NCBI GenBank assembly: GCA_963767625.1
Contig: CAVYFB010000009.1
Span: 449,310 to 473,309 of the forward strand
DNA length: 24,000 bases
Reading direction: 5' to 3'
From: an uncultured Chloroflexia bacterium
Lineage (GTDB): Bacteria > Chloroflexota > Ktedonobacteria > Ktedonobacterales > Ktedonobacteraceae
Shown here: piece by piece, positions 1,703 through 23,985 of the stretch
Position numbering within the stretch: the stretch's first letter is position 1
How the letters are laid out: every line of letters begins with the position of its first letter
Notes under the pieces: model-generated
What the model saw: only the letters and a program-made list of their open reading frames with translations
Databases searched by the model: none
What the model was told of the DNA's origin: nothing
Position numbers and translations under genes: made by a program

Positions 1703-1975
1703 TGAATCGTTCTCCTCAGCTAGGGGGATGTAAGCCGGTAATCACTTGAGACGAAGACATTATGTAATACTATAGCAAATTTGATCGAGGTGACATCAGG
1801 TGAATACCCGATTTTTGACGAGAAAGTACTTTAGGGGAGCAATTCGTTTTATGCACAGGTTTCTAAGTTTCGTTTCAGGAAAACCCTGAGGATGTAGCCT
1901 TTCATATGTAGCCGTGCGTGTAGTATAAGGGACGGCATCCAGAAGTATCCCTGGTACTTATGCATCGCTGTGGGC

Positions 1976-1981
1976 TATAAT
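1976..1981 (+). promoter_or_regulatory. possible -10 box (TATAAT) for the 2021 gene
   Basis: A perfect TATAAT lies 40 nt upstream of ATG 2021. No convincing -35 is present (GGTACT at the 17-nt spacing). Confidence 0.25.
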
Positions 1982-2020
1982 TTCAGTATTAGCCCTATTT
2001 TAATTCGTTGGAGGAGTGCT

Positions 2021-2506
2021 ATGCAGCAAAAAATAAAAAACATCGCGTTGATTACCGGAGCGGTGCTGGTAATAGTCATAGTGGGGATCATCGTCGTCGG
2101 GGTCACTACTGGACATATGATTGATGTCGTCTACGTTTCGCTGATCATTGTGGCTCTTCTCACCCTGGCAGTGACGGTTTTGCAGATTATTGCAATTGTC
2201 AGGCTTATAGGTACCATTTCGATGGTACGCGACGAGATGAAGCCTTTGCTGGTATCGGTGCAGGAGACGGTTGGCGTGGTCCAGGAGACAGCAAAGAACG
2301 CGAATCAGACGGTGGCTACGATTGGCACTGTGGCTCGCTTCACGAGCGATTTTGCTGTCCAGCCGAGTGTACGTGCAGTCTCCCTTTTAATGGCAGCCCA
2401 ACAGGTGATCCGCGTGTTTATCGGTAAAGGCCATGTCAGGAGTCGTGCTGATCGACGTCGCAAGCAGCAAGTCAATGACCTCCCCCTAGCAGGGGGAGGC
2501 TTGTAG
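2021..2506 (+). CDS. small membrane protein (N-terminal TM helices plus coiled-coil-like tail; DUF948-like architecture)
   Basis: ATG 2021 is preceded by GGAGGAG (2010-2016). The ORF-track start at 1970 is a GTG with no SD. Hydrophobic segments are IALITGAVLVIVIVGIIVVGV and VVYVSLIIVALLTLAVTVLQIIAIV. The last codons and the stop lie inside hairpins at 2479-2526. Confidence 0.6.
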   Translation: MQQKIKNIALITGAVLVIVIVGIIVVGVTTGHMIDVVYVSLIIVALLTLAVTVLQIIAIVRLIGTISMVRDEMKPLLVSVQETVGVVQETAKNANQTVATIGTVARFTSDFAVQPSVRAVSLLMAAQQVIRVFIGKGHVRSRADRRRKQQVNDLPLAGGGL

Positions 2507-2526
2507 GAGCCAGGCTCTTGCAAGCC
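2479..2526 (+). repeat. two adjacent hairpins at the upstream edge of the IscB unit (terminator of the 2021 gene and/or IS left-end structure)
   Basis: CCTCCCCC (2479-2486) pairs with GGGGGAGG (2492-2499) around a 5-nt loop. GGCTTG (2498-2503) pairs with CAAGCC (2521-2526), with an inner GAGC/GCTC stem. The TAG stop of the upstream gene (2504-2506) sits between the arms. Confidence 0.45.
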
Positions 2527-2765
2527 GAATTGACCAGACTCAGCCCTGGAGATCAGCCAGCCGAGCAAGTGTGCGTCTGGCTCATCCGTGACAGGGCTAC
2601 GATACGACGAAGCGTTCCTGTTCGGACTCTGCTGTGCCGCCCCAGCAGCAGACCCTTCAACCGCTGATTTAACCAGCAATGCGGTCAGTTGCCGTGATCA
2701 GCGGAAAGTACCGCGTCGTATCTGTGTCGAGGGGAACACTTGTACTCCGAAAGGAGCCTTACCTG
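2507..2765 (+). ncRNA. candidate IscB omega-RNA (guide plus scaffold); exact 5' end not determinable
   Basis: 259-nt gap directly 5' of iscB on the same strand, which is the canonical omega-RNA position. Nested helices: 2542-2548/2592-2598 enclosing 2551-2560/2577-2586; long-range 2601-2609/2714-2722 (9 bp) enclosing hairpins 2628-2634/2646-2652 and 2661-2668/2697-2704 (8 bp). The 3' end overlaps the iscB SD. Confidence 0.6.
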
Positions 2766-4040
2766 ATGAAGGTCTTTGTCTTGTCCCAGCAGGGGACACT
2801 ACTCATGCCCACCACGCCCAGGAGGGCACGGCTCTGGCTCAAGGCCAAGCGTGCGCGCATGCTCAGCCGCGACCCGTTTACCATCCAGCTGCGCTTTGAG
2901 ACCACTCATTATACCCAACCCGTCACCGTTGGAGTGGATACAGGTTCGCAGACGGTGGGAGTTGCCGCGACGACGGGAGGCTCGGTGGTCTACCAGGCTG
3001 AAGTGCATCTGCGCGATAACATCACGAGCAAGCTGAAAGAGCGCCGACAGTCACGCCGAAATCGGCGGAGTCGCAAAACGCGGTACAGACCGGCACGCTT
3101 TGCCAACCGTCGTCGGCCTTCTGGCTGGCTTGCACCCTCGCTGCGCTCGAAGGCGGAGGCAACCCTCAAGGCCGTGCGTTTTGTCACCACCATCTTACCT
3201 GTCCAGCACATCAAGGTCGAGGTAGCAAGCTTCGACACGCACAAGATGCAGCACCCTGAAATCGCGGGGATGCAGTATCAGCAGGGCGAGTTACAAGGCT
3301 ATCAGGTGCGGGAATATCTGTTGCAAAAGTGGCAAAGGACGTGCATCTATTGTCACAAGAGCGGCATTCCCCTTCAAGTGGAGCATCTTACGCCCAAAGC
3401 CAGGGGAGGATCGGACCGGATCTCCAACCTTGCACTAGCCTGTGAGCCGTGTAATCGGCGCAAAGGCAAGCAGACCGCCACAGAGTTCGGCTACCCAGAG
3501 ATGCAGGCGCAAGCCAGGGTTCCTTTGAGGGATGCTGCCCAGGTCTCGAGTGTGAAGACGGCTCTCGTCTCAGCACTGCGCGAGCAGTTCGGGGTCGAGA
3601 GGATCGTGATCACCTATGGCTATGAGACGAAGTACAAGCGCATCCAGGTGCTTGACCTGCCCAAATCGCATACCAACGATGCCGTGGCCATTGCATGCGG
3701 GATGGGCGAAGCAGTCAAGCCGGGGTCTCTGGTCTATCAGATCCGCTGCGTTGGGCGTGGGAACTACCAATTGTTCAATGGGAAGCGCGGGGAACACCGA
3801 GTCTGGGCACCCAAGAAGCTGCATGGCTGGAAGTTGTATGAACTGGTCGAGGCGAAAGGAGTCAGAGGCTACATCGGTGGGAGACGAGTCAAGGGGGCTT
3901 TTGTCGTCAAGGATATAGCAACAACACAAACCATGCTGGAAGTCACACCGCGCAAACTCCGACGGCTGAATCGCCCAACGCAGGGGTGGATCATTCAGAG
4001 AGAGGAGGAGCGCGCTTCCTCCCTCAGCCTGAAGGCATGA
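2766..4040 (+). CDS. iscB: IscB, OMEGA-family RNA-guided DNA endonuclease (RuvC plus HNH)
   Basis: ATG 2766 with AAGGAG at 2751-2756. Motifs in order: PLMP-type N-terminus GTLLMPTTPRRARLWL; RuvC-I GVDTGS (Asp codon 2937-2939); Arg-rich bridge helix RRQSRRNRRSRKTRYRPARFANRRRP; RuvC-II IKVEVASFD; HNH CIYCHKSGIPLQVEHLTPKARGGSDRISNLALACEPCNRRKG; RuvC-III SHTNDAVAIA; C-terminal GWKLYELVEAKGVRGYIGGRRVKGAFVV segment typical of the TAM-interacting domain. Confidence 0.9.
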   Translation: MKVFVLSQQGTLLMPTTPRRARLWLKAKRARMLSRDPFTIQLRFETTHYTQPVTVGVDTGSQTVGVAATTGGSVVYQAEVHLRDNITSKLKERRQSRRNRRSRKTRYRPARFANRRRPSGWLAPSLRSKAEATLKAVRFVTTILPVQHIKVEVASFDTHKMQHPEIAGMQYQQGELQGYQVREYLLQKWQRTCIYCHKSGIPLQVEHLTPKARGGSDRISNLALACEPCNRRKGKQTATEFGYPEMQAQARVPLRDAAQVSSVKTALVSALREQFGVERIVITYGYETKYKRIQVLDLPKSHTNDAVAIACGMGEAVKPGSLVYQIRCVGRGNYQLFNGKRGEHRVWAPKKLHGWKLYELVEAKGVRGYIGGRRVKGAFVVKDIATTQTMLEVTPRKLRRLNRPTQGWIIQREEERASSLSLKA

Positions 4041-4043
4041 GGG
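4004..4043 (+). repeat. two adjacent hairpins at the downstream edge of the IscB unit (candidate IS right-end structure)
   Basis: GGAGGA (4004-4009) pairs with TCCTCC (4017-4022). CCCTCAGCC (4021-4029) pairs with GGC-A-TGAGGG (4034-4043), with a TGAA loop and one bulge. This second hairpin overlaps the iscB TGA stop (4038-4040). Confidence 0.4.
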
Positions 4044-4061
4044 TACCCAGAAAGGATTTTT

Positions 4062-4622
4062 ATGGATCAACCAAATAACCTGCTTGCCATTTTGGGACAG
4101 ATAGCCGCTTTCATTCTGATCCTTGAACTCCTGGTCTATGTCTTGCTCGCCGTGGTTCTGAATGGGGCATTCGCGATCGCCTTTACCTGGATACGAGAAC
4201 AGACTGAATTACTAAAGAAATTGCGACCAGTGGTTGATAGCGTCAACACAACAACTGAGGCAGCAATCAAGGGAACATTACCTGCTGCGAGTGCCAATGA
4301 TAATAAGATTATGCGAACGGTGGCACAGATTCCTGCTCAGGCCAATGCTATTGAAGGCAAGATTGAGCAGGGAGCGGATCGTGTTGCCAATGTTATGATT
4401 GAGCTTCGCGCTCGCACTGTGATGGTGCAGGGGATAGCCAGGGCGATCTTTTTACCGGGCCTGTCGACCAGGCAACAGCGTTTGCCTGCGCCAAAGAGCC
4501 CCGAGGCAAGGGTGATGCTGGAAGAGCGCTCATCAGAGATAAATACGCCTGCAGAAGCTAGTGATGGCCGTGTAGATCTGGCAGCATCTGGCTCGCAGCC
4601 TGGAAGGTCTACAGGCACATAG
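4062..4622 (+). CDS. small membrane protein (N-terminal TM region plus coiled-coil-like tail), same architecture as the 2021 gene
   Basis: ATG 4062 with AAGGA at 4052-4056. Hydrophobic N-terminus LAILGQIAAFILILELLVYVLLAVVLNGAFAIAF is followed by a low-complexity polar tail. Confidence 0.6.
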   Translation: MDQPNNLLAILGQIAAFILILELLVYVLLAVVLNGAFAIAFTWIREQTELLKKLRPVVDSVNTTTEAAIKGTLPAASANDNKIMRTVAQIPAQANAIEGKIEQGADRVANVMIELRARTVMVQGIARAIFLPGLSTRQQRLPAPKSPEARVMLEERSSEINTPAEASDGRVDLAASGSQPGRSTGT

Positions 4623-4629
4623 TCGAGAG

Positions 4630-6177
4630 ATGCAATTCATCATTGAGTACGTCCGACAATTTGGACGTTTTCAGCGCAATGCGCGTCTGTACCTGATTAG
4701 TAATGCATTGGGTGGAGTTACGGCAGGTATTGTGCTGGTGCTTTATAATCTCTACCTGGTTTCGCTTGGCTACCGCGCGGACTTTGTTGGGGTGTTGTTG
4801 TTTGTAGGGACACTAGGAGCTGGTCTTGCCATCTTTCCCGCAGGAGCATGCATTGACCGCTTTAGCGGAAAAGCGATACTGATCTGGTCAAGTCTGCTGA
4901 TAGGGGTAGCTTGCATAGGGTTATTCCTCTTTCGCCAGCCAATCCCGTTGTTGGTAAGTAGTTTCGTAGCTGGTATTGGTGGCGCATTTCTTCTCGTGAT
5001 AAATGCGCCGTTCTTGACGGCGAATAGTACACCCTCTGAACGTCCTCACCTCTTCAGCTTGAATATTGTTCTATCATTGGTGACAACGGTCCTTGGTAAA
5101 CTGGTTGGAGGAGTCTTGCCGATATGGTTTGGCGCGATCTCCTGGTTGATGACTCCTCTGTCATCGTGGTCAGTGTGGTTACTGGCCAACCAGCCTGATG
5201 CGCGCTCATATCAACTGGCCCTTCTTTTTGCAGGTATCATCGCCGGGCCCAGTCTGATTCCGCTATTTCTCATAAGTGATGATCTAAACCGTCGCCCTGT
5301 CTCTGACAGCTTTCAAGGAACAGCGGGTCGTGAGGCCTGGCACCCACAAGGGCCCCGCCGCTCCGCCCTTCCGCCCCGTGCCACTACATTTCGGGGAGCC
5401 GTCCCACCACCAGACGACGGCACGGTGGACAAGAGGGCCGTGCGAGATGTAGTGGCACGGGGGAAGGCTGGGGGTGGTTGGGCCACGTGCTCGATAAATC
5501 GGCACTCTACGGTGGGTGCCAGGTTCTGGCATGTATTGCGTAGTCCAATCGTGCTGCTATCGCTGACGCAGGTGCTGATCGGGTTGGGCGCAGGGCTATT
5601 CATTCCCTACTTCAATATCTATTTTGTGCAACACCTGCATGCCTCCTCTGTGTTGTTTGGGCTAATCGATGGTAGTGCTACCGCTATGGTTGCATTGTTC
5701 ACCTTATGTGCTCCGTGGCTAGCCACTCGAGTGGGCAAGGTGAACACGATTGCATTGACGGAACTAGCGAGCATCCCACTGTTACTGGCGTTTGGGCTGA
5801 CAAACATACTGCCTCTGGCAGCAGTACTGTATCTTTTCCGTTACAGTTTGATGGATATGTCTACCAGTATTTTTCAGGTTTTCTCGATGGAAGCGGTGCC
5901 GAAAGATCGTCGTGGACTGGCAAATAGTAGTTATCAGGCGGCCTTTCAGGTGTCCTGGGCCCTGGCGGCACCGCTAGGGGGACTGGTGATTGTGCATCTT
6001 GGTTATCCGCCGATTTTTATCGCGGCAGCTGTCTGCTATCTGCTGTCGATTGCGGTGCTATGGGGATGTTTTGGACGTGGGAGGAGAAGACAGTTCGAGC
6101 AAAGAGGGGGGACAGAAGAAATAACGGCATCAACAAGAGGGACGGCTATTTCTTCACATGAGCTTCTCCACCCATGA
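4630..6177 (+). CDS. MFS transporter with a repeat-derived insertion in the central loop
   Basis: 515-aa ORF with two blocks of about six hydrophobic helices. MFS motif-A-like GACIDRFSGK lies after the second helix. The central loop is inflated by the GC-rich segment at about 5336-5523. Confidence 0.8.
   Translation: MQFIIEYVRQFGRFQRNARLYLISNALGGVTAGIVLVLYNLYLVSLGYRADFVGVLLFVGTLGAGLAIFPAGACIDRFSGKAILIWSSLLIGVACIGLFLFRQPIPLLVSSFVAGIGGAFLLVINAPFLTANSTPSERPHLFSLNIVLSLVTTVLGKLVGGVLPIWFGAISWLMTPLSSWSVWLLANQPDARSYQLALLFAGIIAGPSLIPLFLISDDLNRRPVSDSFQGTAGREAWHPQGPRRSALPPRATTFRGAVPPPDDGTVDKRAVRDVVARGKAGGGWATCSINRHSTVGARFWHVLRSPIVLLSLTQVLIGLGAGLFIPYFNIYFVQHLHASSVLFGLIDGSATAMVALFTLCAPWLATRVGKVNTIALTELASIPLLLAFGLTNILPLAAVLYLFRYSLMDMSTSIFQVFSMEAVPKDRRGLANSSYQAAFQVSWALAAPLGGLVIVHLGYPPIFIAAAVCYLLSIAVLWGCFGRGRRRQFEQRGGTEEITASTRGTAISSHELLHP
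5336..5523. repeat. MITE/REP-like GC-rich palindromic element lying in-frame inside the MFS gene
   Basis: 12-bp terminal inverted repeat CCTGGCACCCAC (5336-5347) / GTGGGTGCCAGG (5512-5523). Internal inverted repeat GTGCCACTACAT / ATGTAGTGGCAC. Contains CGATAAATCGGC (5492-5503). The left end matches 15229-15246 at 17/18 nt. The segment is visibly more GC-rich than its flanks and has no stop codons in several frames. Confidence 0.7.
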
Positions 6178-6260
6178 TATCCTCATCAAGAACCTTGCAC
6201 TCTCCGGTTTTTGATGCCTGCTCCAGTCATCCGTGTGGACGAGTTCGCCCCGACATCAAG

Positions 6261-6288
6261 GTACGGGCGTGATTAGTCACGCCCGTAC
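6261..6288. repeat. palindromic hairpin (12-bp stem, TTAG loop) 19 nt downstream of the tatC stop; relative of the 7110-7129 palindrome
   Basis: GTACGGGCGTGA (6261-6272) pairs with TCACGCCCGTAC (6277-6288). No U-tract follows on either strand. It lies between the convergent MFS gene and tatC. Confidence 0.75.
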
Positions 6289-7095: not shown

Positions 7096-7109
7096 ATTTT
7101 CCCTCGTAG

Positions 7110-7129
7110 GGGCGTGATTAATCACGCCC
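7110..7129. repeat. perfect 20-bp palindrome GGGCGTGATTAATCACGCCC between tatA and tatC
   Basis: Perfect dyad read directly from the sequence. It shares the GGGCGTGATTA / TCACGCCC arms with the hairpin at 6261-6288. Confidence 0.8.
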
Positions 7130-7141
7130 GAACCACAGACA

Positions 7142-8679: not shown

Positions 8680-8916
8680 TTAATGCAGATGTTCTTCTAT
8701 ATAATCATCGGCCTCTTGAACCGTCGTGATCTTCTCTGCATCCTCATCTGAGATCTGCAGTTTAAACTCCTCCTCTAGGGACATAATAAGTTCAACCAGG
8801 TCAAGAGAATCTGCATTGAGATCTTCAACAAAAGATGCGTTGGGGACAACCTCACTTTCATCAACGCCGAGCTGATCGACGATGATTTTCTTAAGTCGCT
8901 CAAAAACTGTGGCCAT
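8680..8916 (-). CDS. acpP: acyl carrier protein
   Basis: 78 aa with the [19 protein letters not shown] phosphopantetheine-attachment motif (DSL). The start overlaps the nusB stop (TAATG). Confidence 0.95.
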
Positions 8917-9363
8917 TAATTCACCTCGCTTTCCGCTTTAGGGGTGGGCGCTTGTTGCGCCCGGTTAAATATTGTGCCAAGGACGCCATTGACAAAACGG
9001 CTGGAGGTGTTGCTGCCAAATTGTTTGGCTAATTCCACCGCTTCGTTAATAGCAGCCTTTGCTGGTACCGTATTATTAAACAGAATTTCGAAGATTGCAA
9101 GTCTGAGGATATTTTTGTCGAATTCGGGCCATTTGTTGTAATGGCCATTCGCGTGCCGCGCTCTGAATATGAGCATCGATATCGGCGAGGTGATTACGCA
9201 CCCCTATCACTAATTCGTCGGCGTATTCCAGCACCTTCGGTGGCAGATGGCGATCTTCGGCATGGCGCTGCAAAACCGCTGTGGGCGAGTGTTGGACAAG
9301 GTCATATTCATAGAGTGTTTGCAGCGCGATCATACGTGCTTGTCTGCGTATCCCTATAGGCAT
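8916..9363 (-). pseudogene. nusB: transcription antitermination factor NusB, frame broken by a 1-nt indel (genuine or sequencing error)
   Basis: The N-terminal half (MPIGIRRQARMIALQTLYEYD...[18 protein letters not shown]) is in one frame (9076-9363). The C-terminal half ([16 protein letters not shown]...[27 protein letters not shown]) is in another (8916-9176). The switch falls at the GGG run at 9126-9128; one fewer base would give a continuous NusB. Confidence 0.8.
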
Positions 9364-16592: not shown

Positions 16593-16704
16593 CTCTCATC
16601 AAGAGAGGTGGAGGGAAACGGCCCGATGAAGCCCGGCAACCCGTCTGCGATAATACAGCGCAGGATGGGTGCCAATTCCGGCGGAGTATTCCGCAAGATG
16701 AGGG
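16593..16704 (+). promoter_or_regulatory. SAM-I (S-box) riboswitch
   Basis: CTCTCATCAAGAGAGGTGGAGGGAAACGGCCCGATGAAGCCCGGCAACC...GGTGCCAATTCCGGC...AAGATGAGGG matches the S-box core. P1 is 16593-16600 / 16697-16704. The element lies upstream of metX. Confidence 0.9.
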
Positions 16705-16764: not shown

Positions 16765-16796
16765 ACCCTCACTCGAGCAGAGGTGAGGGTTTTTTG
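16765..16796 (+). terminator. second intrinsic-terminator-like hairpin in the metX leader
   Basis: ACCCTCAC (16765-16772) pairs with GTGAGGGT (16783-16790), followed by TTTTT. It ends 31 nt before the metX ATG. Confidence 0.65.
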
Positions 16797-16826
16797 TTCC
16801 CATGTTCAGGAAGGAGCGACAAGGCG

Positions 16827-17978
16827 ATGGTTACACAGCTTGAACACAATAGATTGGCCAATACCCCATTCGCCCTGGCAAACCCGGTGTTCACCTATAC
16901 TTTCGACCAACTGTCATTGCAACGGGGAGGACCGTTCGGCCCCATTACGCTTGCTTACGAGACATGGGGAACACTGAATGAAGCAGGTGATAATGCCATC
17001 CTGCTCGTCCACGCGCTAACGGGTAGTTCACATGCGCACGACACTGAATATCCTGACGATCCAAAGGCGGCGTGGTGGAATCCATTGATCGGCCCAGGGC
17101 GGCTATTCGACACCTCGCGCTACTTCGTAATCTGCTCAAATATCCTGGGCGGCTGCTACGGCAGTACCGGTCCATCGACCATCGACCCACGCAGCGGACA
17201 ACCCTATGCCATGCGCTTTCCCGTCATCACTATCCGCGATATGGTGAACGCCCAACGCATGCTGATTGAGCATCTGGGTGTGAGCCAACTGGCCATGGTC
17301 GCTGGTGGTTCGATTGGCGGACAACAAGCGCTGGAGTGGGCGGTAACCTATCCCGACCTGGTGCGCAACGTCGTCGTTGTGGCGGCGACAGCAGCATTGA
17401 CTGCGCAAGCTGTGGCGTTCAGTGAGGTAGGGCGTCAGGCGATCATGGCGGACCCACGTTGGCAAGATGGTGACTATCCGCCAGGACAGGGGCCGGATGC
17501 TGGTCTCTCGATAGCGCGTATGTTGGCGATGATTACCTATCAGAGCGAGGAAGCAATGGAGTTGCGTTTCGCTCGACGCCCTGCCCGTAACAATGTGATT
17601 ACTACACCCAGCGGGGCGGCTGATCTGGGGAGCCGTTTCGACGTGGAGGGCTACCTCTACTATCAGGGCCACGCGTTGGTACAGCGTTTCGATGCCAACA
17701 GTTACCTCTACATTAGCCGTGCAATGGACTTGTACGATGTGAGCGAAGGTTATCCTTCGCTAGAGGCTGCATTGCGGCGCTTGCGTAGCAGAGCGTTGTT
17801 TATCGGTATTCGGTCAGATTTTCTCTTCCCTGCGGTGCGTGTGCGCTGGCTGGTCGACCAGGTACGTTCATTGGGTGGTGTTGCAACCTACGTAGAACTC
17901 GACTCACCGTTTGGTCACGATGCCTTCCTCAAAGAATGGGAGCAGATGACTGAGGCCCTTGGCGTCATTAAGGAATAA
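16827..17978 (+). CDS. metX: homoserine O-acetyltransferase
   Basis: Alpha/beta-hydrolase with nucleophile elbow GGSIGGQQALEWA, C-terminal FGHDAFL, and LVHALTGSSH near the N-terminus. ATG 16827 has AGGAAGGAG at 16808-16816. The ORF-track TTG at 16794 lies inside the terminator T-run. Confidence 0.9.
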   Translation: MVTQLEHNRLANTPFALANPVFTYTFDQLSLQRGGPFGPITLAYETWGTLNEAGDNAILLVHALTGSSHAHDTEYPDDPKAAWWNPLIGPGRLFDTSRYFVICSNILGGCYGSTGPSTIDPRSGQPYAMRFPVITIRDMVNAQRMLIEHLGVSQLAMVAGGSIGGQQALEWAVTYPDLVRNVVVVAATAALTAQAVAFSEVGRQAIMADPRWQDGDYPPGQGPDAGLSIARMLAMITYQSEEAMELRFARRPARNNVITTPSGAADLGSRFDVEGYLYYQGHALVQRFDANSYLYISRAMDLYDVSEGYPSLEAALRRLRSRALFIGIRSDFLFPAVRVRWLVDQVRSLGGVATYVELDSPFGHDAFLKEWEQMTEALGVIKE

Positions 17979-18006: not shown

Positions 18007-18051
18007 AAATATTCCTCCTGGCGGGGCAAGCCTCCGCCAGGAGGAATATTT
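18007..18051. terminator. bidirectional terminator hairpin with an 18-bp perfect stem between convergent genes
   Basis: AAATATTCCTCCTGGCGG (18007-18024) pairs with CCGCCAGGAGGAATATTT (18034-18051). The AT-rich stem base gives U-stretches on both strands. It overlaps the stop codon of the 18050 gene. Confidence 0.7.
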
Positions 18052-19372
18052 ATTGCTTAAGTGCTGCAATCAACGCTGGTAGTAACACACCCGCATCTGG
18101 TGAGCCAAGCCCCGTCACGGGGTTCCAGCCGGGCATAGCGGAAAAGCCCTTGATATTTACCGTTCCGTTATCAACACTATTATTGCCAACAGTGATTTCG
18201 TGGAATGCCTGCGCGTACGTACTCGATGCCGCTACCTTGTAGAGGCCTGGGTTGATAAACCCCAGTGGATGACCTGCCATCTGGTCAGCAATAGCACCAA
18301 GTGCTGCCCATGTAGGGGCGCTGGCGCTGGTACCGCCTATCTGCGTCCATGACCCATCCACATAATTGGCCATGGCTGTGGTAGGATCGGCATCCGCCGA
18401 CACATCTGGCACGCCTCGACGATTCTGGAACAGAGTTTGCACAGAAGCTGGTAATGTCTGCTGGTAAGGAGGTGTTGGATAAAAGGCACTGAAGCCACCT
18501 TCACTATCGTTCCATGCTATCTCTCTGCCTTGTTGCAGCGACGTGCCACCGACACCTGTCACCCAGGGACTATCAGCGGCGAAACCAATCGTTGGCGTTG
18601 GCGACAGATGCTTTGACTGCAGGTCTGTAAAGTCAGTAGCCCCGTTGTCACCAGAAGCGGCAAAGAAAGTAATACCCTCCTGTGTCGTGGCTTTCTGCAA
18701 CAAGGCATCCCACTTCTGGATCTCTTGCTGCCCCGCCTGATCTTTGAGCGTGGCTTCGGATGCGCCCCAGCTATTAGAAATGATGTTGCCCAGGTGATGG
18801 TCGATAGCATACTGGATCAGTTGTCGAAATTCAGGCAGGCCCAGGGTGCCCTCGGTTTCAGCGACGGGGCTGGTCAACACGACGATACCTGCATCAGGGG
18901 CAAGAGCGTGAATGACCTCAACATCCAATGTTGTCTCCTCGCCCCACCCCGGTTTATCCTTATTAGGGTCAGACTCTGGTTCGTTGATCGGCGAGATGAC
19001 TTGAATTTTGATCGGCGGCAAACCGAACTGCTGGTCAAACATGTCCATGTCCTGTTGTAAGGTTGGACTGCCAAACGAGACAATATCGACCACCGTTTGC
19101 CCCTTACCAGTGAAACCGTGCTCTACCAGGGACTCAACACCATAAGCTACGCGCAGGCTATGCGGCGTCTGGCAGGACGACGACTGGCTAAGGGGGGCTG
19201 GGCAGGTGTCTGTCGTCGCTCCTGGAGGGAGCGTGGGTGCCTGCGTTGGTACGACTGTGGTTGGTGTCGTGCTTCCTCCACCGATGCCTCCTAACGGACT
19301 ACAGGCGGCGAGAAACAGACACAAGATCGGCAGAAGGAATGGAAAGGAACGTCGGGATGTGTGAGTAATCAT
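18050..19372 (-). CDS. S53 (sedolisin/kumamolisin-like) serine peptidase, lipoprotein
   Basis: Lipobox LFLAAC after a signal sequence. Catalytic contexts EETTLDVEVIHALAP (Glu/Asp), SGDNGA and GGTSASAPTWAA (Ser). There is no long N-terminal prodomain. Confidence 0.75.
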   Translation of the reverse strand: MITHTSRRSFPFLLPILCLFLAACSPLGGIGGGSTTPTTVVPTQAPTLPPGATTDTCPAPLSQSSSCQTPHSLRVAYGVESLVEHGFTGKGQTVVDIVSFGSPTLQQDMDMFDQQFGLPPIKIQVISPINEPESDPNKDKPGWGEETTLDVEVIHALAPDAGIVVLTSPVAETEGTLGLPEFRQLIQYAIDHHLGNIISNSWGASEATLKDQAGQQEIQKWDALLQKATTQEGITFFAASGDNGATDFTDLQSKHLSPTPTIGFAADSPWVTGVGGTSLQQGREIAWNDSEGGFSAFYPTPPYQQTLPASVQTLFQNRRGVPDVSADADPTTAMANYVDGSWTQIGGTSASAPTWAALGAIADQMAGHPLGFINPGLYKVAASSTYAQAFHEITVGNNSVDNGTVNIKGFSAMPGWNPVTGLGSPDAGVLLPALIAALKQ

Positions 19373-19428
19373 CGATGAACTCCTACTATATTAGGAACTG
19401 ACCTGGTACCCTTGTCGGCACCTGGTTG

Positions 19429-20763
19429 TTACGACTTGAGTGCCGCGATCAGATCAGGGATAAACTGGCTGGCCAGTGGCGCGCCCCAACCGGTAACAGC
19501 ATCCCAGCCAGCGACTGCATGGAACCCCTGTACTTGAACACTTCCCTGATTCACGCTGTTATCGCCGCTTATAATGTCGCGAAAATCCTGCTGGGCATGC
19601 ACAGATGTTCCCAGTTTGTAAATGCCAGGGTTGATGAACCCGAGCGGATGACCTGCCATCTGATTGGCAATGGCGATAATAGCAGCCCACAATGGTGTGC
19701 TGGCGCTCGTACCACCTGCCTGTTGCCATTGCCCATCGAAATAGAAAGCCATGCCAGTTACAGGGTTAGCATCACCAGCAATATCTGGCAAACCACGATG
19801 CCCTGCCAGTTCTGATTGTACCACTTGTGGCAGCCCTTGTTGGAATGCTGGCTCGCTGAAGAACTTGCTCATGCCACCACCACTGCCTGACCAGGCACTT
19901 TCGTCGTAGCCGTTGGCTGTACGTGTCAGGGCGGTGCCGCCGACAGTGGTCACCCAGGGAACATCTGCCGGGAAGTTGACGGTCGGCGTAGGGGCGAGCT
20001 TCGTGGCTTTGATATCTTCATAGTCGGTTGCTCCATTATCGCCAGAGCCACTGACAATAGTGAACCCTTGCTGGGTCGTAATTTGCTTGTAGAAATCGCT
20101 GTACTGCTTGATAAGTTGTTGCCCTGCATTGTCTGTGAGAGTCGCTTCTGAAGCAACGTAGCTCTGTGAAAAGATTTGGCCGAGATGGTGCGCGACGGCA
20201 TATTGCTCGAGCTTCATAAATTCAGGTAAGCCGATGGTACCTTCGGTTTCATCGACCGGGCTGGTCATAACCACAATGCCTGCGCCTGGTGCAATGGCGT
20301 GAATGATTTGTACATCGAGTTCCGTCTCACCTGCCCAACCGAGCATATCTTTATTGTTGGGGTCGAAAGGCACAGTTCCCAGTGGCGATACGACCTGAAT
20401 GGTAATCGACGGCAAACCAAACTGCCGATCAAACATATCCATATCCTGCTGCAAGGTAGGACTACCGTACGAGACGATGTCGATGACAGTTTGTCCCTTG
20501 CCCGCGAAGCCTTGTTCGGTCAGTGCTTCTATACCATAGGCAACACGCATGGCATGCGGTGTGTAGCAACTTTTATTTTGACCTAACCCGGTTGGGCAGA
20601 GGTCTGTTGTGCTGGCCGGTGTGAGTAATGCGCCTGGCGTTCGCGTTGGTATTTTTGTTGCTATCGGCGTGGAACCATTACCTGTTGACTGAGCGCCAAA
20701 AGGACTACAAGCTGTGAGCAGTAGCAGTACGATGAAAGGAAATAATTTGGACCTTAAACGCAT
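19429..20763 (-). CDS. S53 (sedolisin/kumamolisin-like) serine peptidase, lipoprotein (tandem paralog)
   Basis: Lipobox LLLTAC. GETELDVQIIHAIAP, SGDNGA and GGTSASTPLWAA are present. It is colinear with the 18050-19372 product over the whole length. Confidence 0.75.
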   Translation of the reverse strand: MRLRSKLFPFIVLLLLTACSPFGAQSTGNGSTPIATKIPTRTPGALLTPASTTDLCPTGLGQNKSCYTPHAMRVAYGIEALTEQGFAGKGQTVIDIVSYGSPTLQQDMDMFDRQFGLPSITIQVVSPLGTVPFDPNNKDMLGWAGETELDVQIIHAIAPGAGIVVMTSPVDETEGTIGLPEFMKLEQYAVAHHLGQIFSQSYVASEATLTDNAGQQLIKQYSDFYKQITTQQGFTIVSGSGDNGATDYEDIKATKLAPTPTVNFPADVPWVTTVGGTALTRTANGYDESAWSGSGGGMSKFFSEPAFQQGLPQVVQSELAGHRGLPDIAGDANPVTGMAFYFDGQWQQAGGTSASTPLWAAIIAIANQMAGHPLGFINPGIYKLGTSVHAQQDFRDIISGDNSVNQGSVQVQGFHAVAGWDAVTGWGAPLASQFIPDLIAALKS

Positions 20764-21050: not shown

Positions 21051-21420
21051 GCTGATAATCGTCAAAGTAGTGCTACTCGTGGACAAGGGCTAATTAAGAA
21101 ACCTTTTGATCTACCGAACCGTGTCAATCAGCTTTCGCCTGCAGAGCAATCACCTTTTTCTGATGCTGTTCCTCCACCTACTGCCGATAATCGTCAGGGT
21201 GGTGCACCTCGCGGACAGGGGTTGATCAAGAATCCCTTGAAGCTGCAAGGTAGGGTCGGACAGGCCTGCAATCTGTGGAGCAGCCTCCTTTCCCAAATAC
21301 TGATCGACTACCGAATAGTGGTACTCCTGTCAGACAGGGATTGATCAAGAATCCCTTGAAGCTGCAAGGTAGGGTCGGACAGCTGCAACCTGTGGAGCAG
21401 CCGCCCATTCCCAATTCTGC
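21051..21420 (+). repeat. three imperfect tandem coding repeats (about 117-132 nt) at the 5' end of the CHAP gene
   Basis: Peptide unit RGQGLIK-x-P-x-x-L-x-x-RV-x-QL-x-P-x-EQ-x-P. A 42-nt block TTGATCAAGAATCCCTTGAAGCTGCAAGGTAGGGTCGGACAG is identical at 21222-21263 and 21341-21382. Confidence 0.85.
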
Positions 21421-22339
21421 TCCGTCATATATAGGGGTGCCCCACCGAACAGAGTACAATGCTTCTCCTCGCATGATCCGCCCCTTGTCTGAACCTATTA
21501 CGCCGCTGAACGGGACACCTCCTCTAGCGGACCCTATCACGTCGCCTCGCATAACCCGGCACTTACCGGAATATAGGACAGTGGTCACTCGCCCGCTCAT
21601 TGATGAACAGACGGGTGTGTTGCCCTATCTCATGAGTAGCGGTACAACATCGGTGCGCCAACCAGTGGTCATCCCTGCTACGGCCAAAAAGCGTAACAGT
21701 AGCAGCCTGGGACCTGAGCAACCCCCTCGGAAGCGGCATTGGCGTGCACAAATTGTCGTGACAAGCTTGATTCTGGTGATAGCTGTTGCTACGTTGTTGA
21801 GTGTCGTGCCTGTCGACAAGGCTGGGGATCACCTCTTCAATCCGTTCCGATCGATTAGTAATCTGGTACAAACGAGCGGCGGCAACCCGAGTTCGATCGC
21901 GCAACAAGATGCGACGGCAACGGTGACCCACCAGGATGGTTATGACCCTGGCAGTAGTGTAGCACCTCTGAGCGCTGGCGGTGCCTATGATCATTTCGCC
22001 TTTGGCCAATGCACCTACTATGCGTCTATGCGTTATCACGAGTTGACGGGTCAGTGGGTCCCCTGGCTGGGGAATGCCTTTCAGTGGGCGTATGAAGCCA
22101 GTGGCTTTGGCTGGGTCGTGTCATCAAAGCCGAGAGTGCCTTCGATCATCGTCTTGCAACCCGGCGTTCAGGGAGCTGGTTGGTTTGGCCATGTCGCTAT
22201 CGTCGAGTCGATCAATGCCGATGGCAGTGTCTCTACGAGCGGCTGGAACTGGTACGGCCCTGGCGGTGCTGGCTGGGGTCGCCTCAGTGTCGTCACCTTC
22301 CGTCCCGGTCCGGGCGTGAGCTTTGTGTGGCATCAATAG
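21275..22339 (+). CDS. CHAP-domain peptidoglycan hydrolase with TM anchor; probably the 3' part of a frameshifted longer gene starting at ATG 21042
   Basis: C-terminal CHAP motifs FGQCTYYA (Cys) and GHVAIVESI (His). TM segment IVVTSLILVIAVATLLSVV. The track start is a GTG inside repeat 2. The upstream frame 21042-21344 (SD GAGGA at 21030-21034) encodes the same repeat and would join if GC at 21264-21265 were removed. Confidence 0.75.
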   Translation: MEQPPFPNTDRLPNSGTPVRQGLIKNPLKLQGRVGQLQPVEQPPIPNSAPSYIGVPHRTEYNASPRMIRPLSEPITPLNGTPPLADPITSPRITRHLPEYRTVVTRPLIDEQTGVLPYLMSSGTTSVRQPVVIPATAKKRNSSSLGPEQPPRKRHWRAQIVVTSLILVIAVATLLSVVPVDKAGDHLFNPFRSISNLVQTSGGNPSSIAQQDATATVTHQDGYDPGSSVAPLSAGGAYDHFAFGQCTYYASMRYHELTGQWVPWLGNAFQWAYEASGFGWVVSSKPRVPSIIVLQPGVQGAGWFGHVAIVESINADGSVSTSGWNWYGPGGAGWGRLSVVTFRPGPGVSFVWHQ

Positions 22340-22710: not shown

Positions 22711-23985
22711 ATGGCTGCAGACGTTCATGAGCATGGAGCAGTGCTCATTGCGCATATTGGCACTGGCGAATTGGTTGCCAGAAAATCCTCCGAGGCTTCT
22801 CTCTACCCTGACCCCAGATGTGGCTATTATCAGATCGAAGACGCACGCGAGTCTGAATGTGCCCTGATACTGTTTGCTCGAGATACACTTACGTCTGAAC
22901 GCGTCGTCATGAAAATACTACGTCAGTACAAAGATACTCGCTATAGCTTGGCGACTCTGTATGAGCGACAGCAGTGTCAACTCGAGGCACTGGAACGAAA
23001 CAGAGTATTTACGCCGGAAGTTTATATCGGACTGGCCCGCATTGACTATCTCGATCTACCACAAGGACGTTTCGCCATTGAAGAGATTATCAGGAGTTCT
23101 ACACCTGGAGGCATTAGCCTGTTGGGTCTAGAGCAAGGATTTTTCCCTATCAATGAGATTATCGCCAACCCCACACAAGAAATACTTGATCACGATGCCG
23201 AGTATGCCTTGGCCATGTGCCAATTGCCAGAGGAAAGGCGTCTAGATCGCCTCCTGAGTGAGGAGAGTGAAGATGCTCTTTTAGATTTCATGCACCTATT
23301 GTCTAAATACGTAGCGTATATGCATACTAATCTTGTCAAGCCGCTTGATGTTGACGAAGATGAGACAAAATGGGGCAGTTACGAGCAATTACACTGCAAG
23401 CTCTTGCATAACCTTGGCCTCCTCGACCTAGTGCTGACAACCAGTATACTCGATCAGCATTTCACCTTTGACTTGTCGAAAGATACCCTTCATTGGCTGG
23501 AGGAGATGCTACTTCAAGTATTTACGGAGAGCCGCTATCGCAGCTATTTTGAGCAGAGAGTGCGGGAGCAACGGATTAAGCGTTGTCATGGCGATTTGAA
23601 ATCCCCAAATATCTGGATTCTGCCGCCTGATCAGAGTTGCAATGGGAAGCCTGGTGAGTGTGTCAAAATCCTGGATGCCATTGACTTCAATCCTTCGTAC
23701 AGTAACATCGATACGCTCAGTGATTTTGCTATGCTCGTCATCGACGTTCAGACGCGTACTAAGTCACCCACCCTTGCTGACAAGATGGTAGAGGACTATC
23801 TGGAGCTTACAGATCAAAATAACCAGACAGCTAGGTCAGTGCTCACCTATTATCTTGTTGAAAAGGCCATTGTTGGCGCGGCGATAAGTATCGTCTATGA
23901 TAATTTGGCTGAGCTTGGCCTGAGTCTTCTGGAAATTGCCAGGAAGCGCTTGCAATGTTTGGTAGATGGGAGTACTTTAATCTGA
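22711..23985 (+). CDS. aminoglycoside-phosphotransferase/choline-kinase-fold phosphotransferase-like protein
   Basis: 424 aa. Putative ATP-Lys context RVVMKILRQ, catalytic loop RCHGDLKSPNIWIL (HGDLxxxN) and metal-binding KILDAIDFN. The substrate is unknown. Confidence 0.6.
   Translation: MAADVHEHGAVLIAHIGTGELVARKSSEASLYPDPRCGYYQIEDARESECALILFARDTLTSERVVMKILRQYKDTRYSLATLYERQQCQLEALERNRVFTPEVYIGLARIDYLDLPQGRFAIEEIIRSSTPGGISLLGLEQGFFPINEIIANPTQEILDHDAEYALAMCQLPEERRLDRLLSEESEDALLDFMHLLSKYVAYMHTNLVKPLDVDEDETKWGSYEQLHCKLLHNLGLLDLVLTTSILDQHFTFDLSKDTLHWLEEMLLQVFTESRYRSYFEQRVREQRIKRCHGDLKSPNIWILPPDQSCNGKPGECVKILDAIDFNPSYSNIDTLSDFAMLVIDVQTRTKSPTLADKMVEDYLELTDQNNQTARSVLTYYLVEKAIVGAAISIVYDNLAELGLSLLEIARKRLQCLVDGSTLI

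Follow-up and report, generated by a model that had tools for sequence, protein, structure and literature searches.

An intact iscB gene and its ωRNA in a predicted non-autonomous ISC2-type transposon of an uncultured Chloroflexia bacterium

The closest described relatives of the locus reported here are the ISC2 elements of Ktedonobacter racemifer, which encode KraIscB (PMC4810608). These are single iscB elements of about 1.6 kb, with an HNH domain located within RuvC and no tnpA; they begin with 5'-GTCA..., carry subterminal imperfect hairpins, show neither terminal inverted repeats nor a target-site duplication, and are inserted at 4-5-nt targets of the ATGA/GTGG type. In ISGst, the element of GstIscB, one end of the transposon supplies the ωRNA scaffold and the adjacent flank supplies the guide, the target-adjacent motif (TAM) is the transposase target motif, and ωRNA production relies on a co-oriented upstream gene (Meers et al., bioRxiv 10.1101/2023.03.14.532601). 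We found an element sharing all of these ISC2 features at positions 2471..4061 (+ strand; 1,591 bp) of a 24,000-nucleotide stretch from an uncultured Chloroflexia bacterium (contig CAVYFB010000009.1; this whole stretch is hereafter called the window). As in ISGst, its scaffold comes from the transposon end and its putative guide from the flank, its putative TAM coincides with the insertion target, and a co-oriented upstream gene is proposed to drive its ωRNA. It can be described with good confidence as a non-autonomous OMEGA (obligate mobile element-guided activity) transposon of the ISC2 type (IS200/IS605 family), consisting of an ωRNA and an intact iscB gene, whose predicted role is the retention of the element.

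To delimit the element, we compared the window with about 90 related loci, taken from species genomes and soil metagenomes, and with five syntenic empty sites. The loci became alignable exactly at GTCAATGACC (window 2471), and the sequences further upstream were unrelated between loci. On the other side, the iscB stop codon was followed by a conserved imperfect hairpin, a linker of 5-8 nt and the motif ATGGA, where similarity ended. The ends were of the ISC2 type, with sharp limits at 2471 and 4061 and hairpins at 2479-2499 (ωRNA side; arms 2479-2487 and 2491-2499, within the ωRNA scaffold) and 4021-4043. No terminal inverted repeats were present in the element, and comparison with the empty sites revealed no target-site duplication. 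Elements of the clade ranged from 1,465 to 1,679 bp and were without cargo; three loci in which the TAM lay far from the iscB stop, considered as possible cargo carriers, corresponded instead to frameshifted copies.

An earlier note on this DNA, made from the sequence alone, had described the nuclease gene as transposase-less. This holds for the window, as no Y1_Tnp domain was detected with Pfam in any plausible open reading frame (ORF), and the element was classed as non-autonomous because no Y1 TnpA is encoded there. About 1.5% of iscB genes are located near tnpA (Meers et al., bioRxiv 10.1101/2023.03.14.532601). Relatives with 78-94% protein identity occupied other sites, with unrelated flanks and other guides, which indicates that the lineage has moved.

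The iscB coding sequence (2766..4040, + strand) encodes 424 amino acids, and the ORF listing agreed with the note that this frame is intact. The reading frame continues in-frame upstream as far as an ATG at 2679; similarity to all relatives starts at the Met of 2766, which is preceded by AAAGGAG (2750-2756). All the motifs that had been listed from the translation were present, with the same order and spacing: GTLLMPTTP (residues 10-18), GVDTGS of RuvC-I (residues 56-61), an Arg-rich bridge helix (residues ~86-118), VEVASFD of RuvC-II (residues 151-157), the HNH motifs CIYC (residues 193-196), VEH (residues 205-207), SNL (residues 220-222) and CEPCN (residues 226-230), HTNDA of RuvC-III (residues 302-306) and, in the C-terminal part, GW (residues 354-355) and GRRVKGAFVV (residues 372-381). 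Profile hidden Markov model searches, which the note had proposed, returned IscB models and not generic HNH enzymes. Pfam RRXRR matched residues 3-174 (E = 2.2e-63), Pfam HNH matched residues 193-236 (E = 1e-11), i.e., between RuvC-II and RuvC-III, and the NCBIfam equivalog model NF040563 (guided_IscB) matched residues 3-309 with 393.7 bits, for a cutoff of 175. Partial matches of the HNH region to other NCBIfam models were far below cutoff (Cas9d, 55.7 versus 375; Cas9, 30.1 versus 100).

The solved structures closest by sequence were TbaIscB, OgeuIscB, and other IscB-ωRNA complexes. Alignment to OgeuIscB, for which a profile of 37 clade members was used, covered residues 2-320, and the split RuvC motifs matched residue for residue. 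The catalytic RuvC residues D58 (RuvC-I), E152 (RuvC-II), H302 and D305 (RuvC-III) aligned with D61, E193, H340 and D343 of OgeuIscB, and the catalytic His 207 of the HNH domain with H247. In the 37-sequence alignment these five residues were invariant, as were the zinc-binding cysteines C193, C196, C226 and C229 and the asparagines N221 and N230 of the HNH domain, and M14, P15 and T16 of the PLMP motif. The PLMP-type N-terminus claimed in the note was upheld at the level of the domain, residues 2-113 aligning with the N-terminus of OgeuIscB and of other solved IscBs, but not at the level of the exact motif, which reads LLMP (residues 12-15); the replacement of Pro12 by Leu was seen in none of the 36 aligned relatives.

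The C-terminal domain (residues ~320-424) was conserved within the clade, while no sequence alignment to solved IscBs extended past about residue 320. It appeared beta-rich in a low-confidence AlphaFold2 model (predicted local distance difference test, pLDDT, of 54), which was run on the 37-sequence alignment, a set of low diversity (all sequences at least 67% identical). When this weak model was submitted to Foldseek, the top matches were all IscB/IsrB complexes, the best being 8csz, and the whole length of the protein was aligned to IscB, with a TM-score of only ~0.36 (E to 5.5e-17). Because the model is poor, this result backs the family only, and the TAM-interacting assignment suggested in the note for the C-terminal segment is putative.

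Several databases label close relatives of this protein "5-methylcytosine-specific restriction endonuclease McrA", and HNH Pfam domains do match. It is nevertheless scarcely credible that the gene encodes a stand-alone HNH restriction-type endonuclease instead of an IscB. The HNH domain occupies only residues 193-241 of the 424, RRXRR/RuvC lies elsewhere in the protein, residues 2-320 align with solved IscBs including the catalytic RuvC residues, and a covarying ωRNA lies upstream, whereas the McrA label is an automatic name derived from the HNH domain. This candidate was rejected on the Pfam and NCBIfam matches, the Rfam match upstream and the alignment with solved IscBs. Family models and alignments to solved structures thus confirmed the note's assignment to IscB, the IS200/IS605-borne family ancestral to Cas9. 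On sequence grounds, the ORF is a genuine intact IscB and an ordinary member of a very large known family, counting more than 5,500 close relatives in the databases. The exact window protein was absent from sequence records, the nearest entry being 98% identical and originating from a soil metagenome; in the species-genome collection, the best match was 68% identical. A second ORF of 424 aa (22711..23985), considered as another IscB copy, showed no BLASTP similarity and no Pfam match.

The ωRNA scaffold (HEARO RNA; 2471..2765, + strand) was delimited by Rfam and by the conservation boundary. The full-length model RF02033 matched 2471..2742 with 105.6 bits, for a gathering score of 83, and a HEARO match was likewise found upstream of nearly all relatives. 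The RNA leader that the note had placed at 2507-2765 was therefore not borne out, the scaffold beginning at 2471 and the putative guide occupying about 2455-2470. The window ωRNA is ~60 nt longer than the Rfam model and has a clade-specific insertion. Among 38 independent loci, RNAalifold predicted 70 pairs, with compensatory double changes in 48 of them. Between the window and locus L101, which carries the same insertion (see below), the ωRNA was 98% identical (2.0% of positions differing) versus a synonymous divergence (dS) of ~0.06 for iscB.

The ωRNA ends in a hairpin formed by CTCC (2745-2748), GAAA and GGAG (2753-2756), which holds the iscB Shine-Dalgarno (SD) sequence AAAGGAG (2750-2756). 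In this hairpin, which is conserved, GNRA-capped and closes the ωRNA, the GGAG of the SD sequence forms the 3' arm; longer, covarying versions of it occur in relatives. Such a hairpin could couple ωRNA folding to iscB translation.

The element lies between two host genes of the + strand, both encoding small membrane proteins. The upstream gene (gene A, 1970..2506; no Pfam match) has its 3' end truncated by the insertion: where the site is empty, its homologs terminate with ...RKQQMEAEAAVGGE and a stop codon, whereas in the window gene A closes with 11 element-encoded codons (2471-2503, VNDLPLAGGGL) and a stop at 2504-2506. The downstream gene (gene B, 4062..4622; 186 aa) is located directly 3' of the element, and its homologs start at the same Met (ATG of 4062). 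At the empty sites (L015-L019), gene B begins 3 nt after gene A and the segment corresponding to 2471..4061 is absent. The uninserted host sequence reads ...CGCAAGCAGCAG/ATGGAAGC...TAATTC/ATGGATCAACC, with 36 nt between the two break points (slashes), and the window reads ...CGCAAGCAGCAA/element/ATGGATCAACC. The left flank of the window ends just before a first ATGGA and the right flank picks up at a second one; two independent break points thus both adjoin ATGGA. The 36 host nucleotides between the two motifs, which comprise the last ten codons and the stop of gene A as well as the GGAGG of gene B, are absent from the window. At empty sites, this GGAGG lies within the lost 36 nt, 10-14 nt upstream of the gene B ATG, and gene B is cut off from its native ribosome-binding site.

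Removal of 2471..4061 from the window creates an in-frame fusion of A and B, which is a by-product of the 36-nt deletion. The possibility that the element split a single host gene was considered and rejected: the homologous proteins P0001-P0024 (~200 aa) match only the B half of a fused A+B query, and the empty sites contain two genes with a stop codon between them.

The guide and the TAM had been held unknowable from the sequence, which proved too pessimistic, as both can be inferred from the flanks and junctions. The putative guide, ACGTCGCAAGCAGCAA (2455..2470, + strand), consists of 16 nt of host DNA, i.e., the last codons of the truncated gene A; it adjoins the scaffold start on the 5' side and is unique within the window. 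The motif ATGGA (4062..4066, + strand), which opens with the native ATG start of gene B, was found at the junction in nearly all of ~52 unique sites, with few exceptions, and at both break points of the uninserted host sequence. In the junction logo, information content dropped from ~2 bits to ~0.1 bit at position +6, although the presence of ATGGA in the search profile makes this logo partly circular. Together, these observations point to ATGGA as the probable TAM of the window IscB. ATGG and ATGA have been documented as TAMs or targets of IsrB/ISC relatives (PMC9581776; PMC4810608). A commentary gives ATAAA as the TAM of KraIscB-1.

Gene A is co-oriented with the element, and its frame crosses the 2470/2471 boundary. 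A promoter scan identified a sigma70-like site at 1746-1773, upstream of gene A, and none between gene A and the ωRNA. Since the element does not itself encode the guide, transcripts have to come in from host DNA, and read-through transcription of gene A probably supplies both the guide and the ωRNA. Dependence of iscB on outside transcription, together with an orientation bias, has been described by Meers et al. (bioRxiv 10.1101/2023.03.14.532601). A transcript initiated at the gene A promoter would yield an RNA with ~16 nt of host sequence (2455-2470) as its 5' part, joined to the ωRNA scaffold, and with the iscB and gene B messages behind it. IscB loaded with the processed ωRNA would then scan DNA for a 16-nt match followed on its 3' side by ATGGA. 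This combination would occur only in DNA without the element, i.e., at the donor joint after excision by TnpA or in an empty allele; where the element is present, GTCAAT comes after the guide match, so that self-targeting would not take place. At such a target, HNH would cut the target strand and RuvC the non-target strand, and repair from the occupied copy would restore the element, as in the retention/homing model of Meers et al. Movement to new sites would need a Y1 TnpA encoded elsewhere in the genome. RNA-guided, TAM-dependent cleavage of double-stranded DNA by the window IscB is predicted from this arrangement.

The insertion was common to four sampled lineages, namely the window, L024 (97% IscB identity), L101 (98%) and L102. 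The same junction, with the same right end, was found in L024, L101 and L102, which indicates that the insertion is old and vertically inherited. The ratio of nonsynonymous to synonymous substitution rates (dN/dS) of iscB was 0.19 between the window and L024, 0.215 between the window and L101 (Fisher p = 3e-5) and 0.10 between L024 and L101, with Fisher p values from 3e-5 to 2e-4 over the three pairwise orthologue comparisons; for neighbouring host genes, dN/dS was 0.33-0.41. By these ratios, iscB has been subject to purifying selection at the site where it is fixed, and the gene appears intact and constrained, not merely young. The note's statement that the protein looks active rather than decayed thus received indirect support, from a dN/dS of ~0.2 between orthologous copies.

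These values make it very improbable that the gene is an inactive relic, with a reading frame that is open only for lack of time and a ribonucleoprotein that does nothing. With dN/dS of 0.1-0.2 in each of the three comparisons, an ωRNA more conserved than synonymous sites and all catalytic and zinc-binding residues kept, such a relic would have to be reconciled with constraint on both partners, even though it would account for the P12L change seen in the window copy alone and would agree with the ~1/10 of clade copies that are already pseudogenes, carrying premature stops or deletions. The housekeeping gene nusB is also frameshifted in the window, which implies that this genome or its assembly tolerates, or contains, lesions.

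The decayed members of the clade (L075, L091, L092, L093, L098, and L099), with premature iscB stops or a deleted element of 1,465 bp, still show recognisable ends and the ATGGA junction.

From the first base of the element rightwards (L101:5387 = window 2471), L101 and the window are collinear, with 94-96% nucleotide identity in the right flank, and the left flank of L101 is wholly unrelated, starting exactly at the ωRNA boundary. L101 therefore carries the same element at the same right-hand site with a different guide, probably as a result of recombination between two element copies. The guide and TAM remain self-consistent after such a swap because the TAM is constant. In the L101 left flank, TGGTATAAT was noticed by eye ~35 nt upstream, but the consensus scan called no promoter on the + strand.

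The far (TnpA-side) end of the element (4010..4061, + strand) overlaps the last iscB codons and has been remodelled. An inner imperfect hairpin with a bulged A pairs 4021-4029 with 4034-4043. The 5' half of an outer stem, GCGCGC, is present at 4010-4015; its 3' partner is missing, with AGAAAGG in its place. An SD-like AAAGGA (4051-4056) follows, then a T5 linker (4057-4061). The nearest relatives (L021, L093, and L025) keep the outer GCGCGC/GCGCGC stem, as determined by alignment and DNA folds. The AAAGGA sits 5 nt before the gene B ATG, and among ~51 unique right ends, an SD-like motif within the last 16 nt was found in this insertion only. The window copy may be poorly mobile or immobile.

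The coding part of the window iscB is closest to L021 and L093, which have an end hairpin of the CCGCC/GGCGG type, and its terminal ~45 nt resemble the K. racemifer end of the L005/L003 type (CCCNCAG...CATGNGGGTACCC). This suggests that the right end (4010-4061) is a mosaic or recombinant.

As for the order of events, the element would have inserted in front of the first ATGGA; the 36 nt leading to the second one would then have been deleted, for which slippage between the 5-nt repeats is the simplest cause, and the ribosome-binding site of gene B would have gone with them. The right end would have been altered afterwards, losing the 3' half of the outer stem and gaining an AAAGGA placed to serve gene B.

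The remodelled end also bears on whether the copy has been immobilised and partly domesticated, either to supply gene B with a ribosome-binding site and couple it to gene A, or for a role of the IscB-ωRNA complex in host regulation or defence instead of retention. The loss of the 3' half of an outer stem that all near relatives keep, the SD-like motif found only here, the loss of the native SD of gene B in the 36-nt deletion, the presence of the insertion in four sampled lineages and purifying selection on iscB in situ speak for domestication. We nevertheless consider it unlikely. Every nuclease residue is intact, whereas known domesticated derivatives such as TldRs lose nuclease residues; the inner hairpin, the linker and ATGGA are intact as well. 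Moreover, a role as spacer or donor of a ribosome-binding site does not explain purifying selection on missense changes, and the swapped guide of L101 speaks against a fixed host target. The predicted retention role remains the preferred explanation.

To characterize the insertion sites, empty joints were rebuilt for 40 unique sites, and a site was classified as start-like if an ORF of 100 aa or more began at the ATG of ATGGA and an in-frame stop lay no more than 120 nt upstream. ATGGA was start-like, with a co-oriented host gene, in 19 of the 40 sites, compared with 4.6% of 325 background ATGGA sites (p = 2e-15). When the null was limited to intergenic or start positions, to take survivorship into account, the excess was 17 out of 26 versus 20% expected (p = 5e-7). 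SD-like tetramers were present in 16 of 47 guides versus 13.6%, and the iscB stop was mostly located 28-29 nt before the host ATG. This excess of start codons is a refinement of the orientation bias that Meers et al. reported for the upstream gene; we found no report of an association between IscB insertions and start codons in the searchable literature, the coverage of which is incomplete.

These results allow a second, more tentative reading, in which the clade prefers ATGGA motifs at start codons and the window copy represents a later stage, nuclease-competent and part selfish, part host-integrated; we consider it less likely than not. The element would insert between the 5' untranslated region (UTR) of a gene and its first codon, borrowing the host promoter and using the 5' UTR as guide, and the host gene would become the last cistron of the element transcript. 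The window copy would since have become fixed in its clade; its TnpA-side hairpin would have eroded, and a ribosome-binding site serving the host gene would have evolved within the transposon end. Selection would still maintain both IscB and the ωRNA, and recombination at the ωRNA boundary could exchange the entire guide, as in L101.

Several observations weigh against the description of the element as a non-autonomous transposon with a retention function, which we still consider well founded. TnpA was not found in the window or in related loci: a tblastn search of 522 kb (window and loci) with IS608 TnpA gave nothing significant. If TnpA needs the outer stem, the window copy would not be excised, there would be no substrate for retention, and purifying selection would be unexplained. 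The guide length of 16 nt is assumed, being taken from characterised IscBs. In the protein, in addition to P12L in the PLMP motif, which is restricted to the window copy among the aligned sequences, the consensus is departed from at D85N and P330G. Finally, the C-terminal domain aligns by sequence with no solved TAM-interacting domain, and the AlphaFold2 model that covers it is poor.

The remainder of the window contains host genes and repeats. Neighbouring genes include ispH/lytB, an MFS transporter gene, tatC, tatA, an ECF sigma factor gene, acpP, nusB, fabD, yceD, and lpd. A single additional base splits the nusB gene (~9100-9180, - strand) into two ORFs that overlap (8916..9176 and 9076..9363), the window reading GAATTCG and L101 GAATCG; this is either a real frameshift or a sequencing error. 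In the MFS gene (4630..6177), the central loop (~5290-5530) is GC-rich, ~50 aa longer than in the L017 ortholog, and holds a 20-nt inverted repeat (5374-5393 with 5443-5462); the extension possibly represents a short insertion that kept the frame. Two near-identical perfect palindromes (GGTACGGGCGTGATTAGTCACGCCCGTAC; 6260-6288 and 7106-7134), located on either side of tatC, may be repeated hairpins of the repetitive extragenic palindromic (REP) type or terminator-like. Rfam gave a SAM (S-box) riboswitch at 16593-16704 (+ strand; 79.7 bits); the alpha/beta-hydrolase ORF downstream of it (16794..17978) plausibly encodes a MetX-type homoserine acyltransferase. Further downstream (18050-20763 and 21067-21422), we observed a pair of S8 peptidase paralogues arranged in tandem, with a 183-nt repeat of 70% identity, and, in the 5' part of a CHAP-domain ORF region, three tandem copies of a ~105-130-nt unit.

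As an IscB, the protein adds little, since the family and its RNA were already established, as were its transposon nature and the usual absence of a transposase. The value of the locus lies in a fully resolved example, with occupied and empty alleles, ends, guide, TAM, and four diverged orthologous copies, which makes selection on a single fixed OMEGA element measurable (dN/dS ~0.2). The excess of start codons, if true, would give a concrete, testable form to the dependence of IscB on host transcription for its guide and, likewise if true, the window copy would have traded a transposase-binding end for a ribosome-binding site while its nuclease remained constrained. A compact enzyme of 424 aa with a short putative TAM, ATGGA, would also be a further candidate for genome-editing screens.

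Compared with known systems, the window element is closest to ISC2. The K. racemifer copies L005 and L006 show 64% protein identity to the window IscB and have the same end architectures and the same ATGGA junction. The 2016 parsing of ISC2 junctions as GT/GG and the parsing used here, N/ATGGA, describe the same sequence, GT now being assigned to the ωRNA. The window copy differs from ISC2 of K. racemifer in its remodelled right end and the adjacent 36-nt host deletion, and it resides in a different Ktedonobacteria-like genome. Cas9 (type II, including the compact Cas9d) shares with the window protein a split RuvC with an inserted HNH, a bridge helix and a 3' adjacent motif; the window protein, however, has 424 aa and no REC (recognition) lobe, and a repeat search of the window found no CRISPR array or other repeats near iscB. 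OgeuIscB-ωRNA (7utn, 7xht, and 8csz) has the same domain order, catalytic residues and ωRNA Rfam family. OgeuIscB is longer, however (496 versus 424 aa), its C-terminal region is not alignable by sequence, and its TAM is NWRRNA (PMC12660989), versus the putative ATGGA here. For GstIscB, retention has been shown by experiment, whereas for the window element it is inferred from sequence; and while the TAM of GstIscB is AT-rich (TTCAT-type), that proposed here is ATGGA, which coincides with host start codons in excess.

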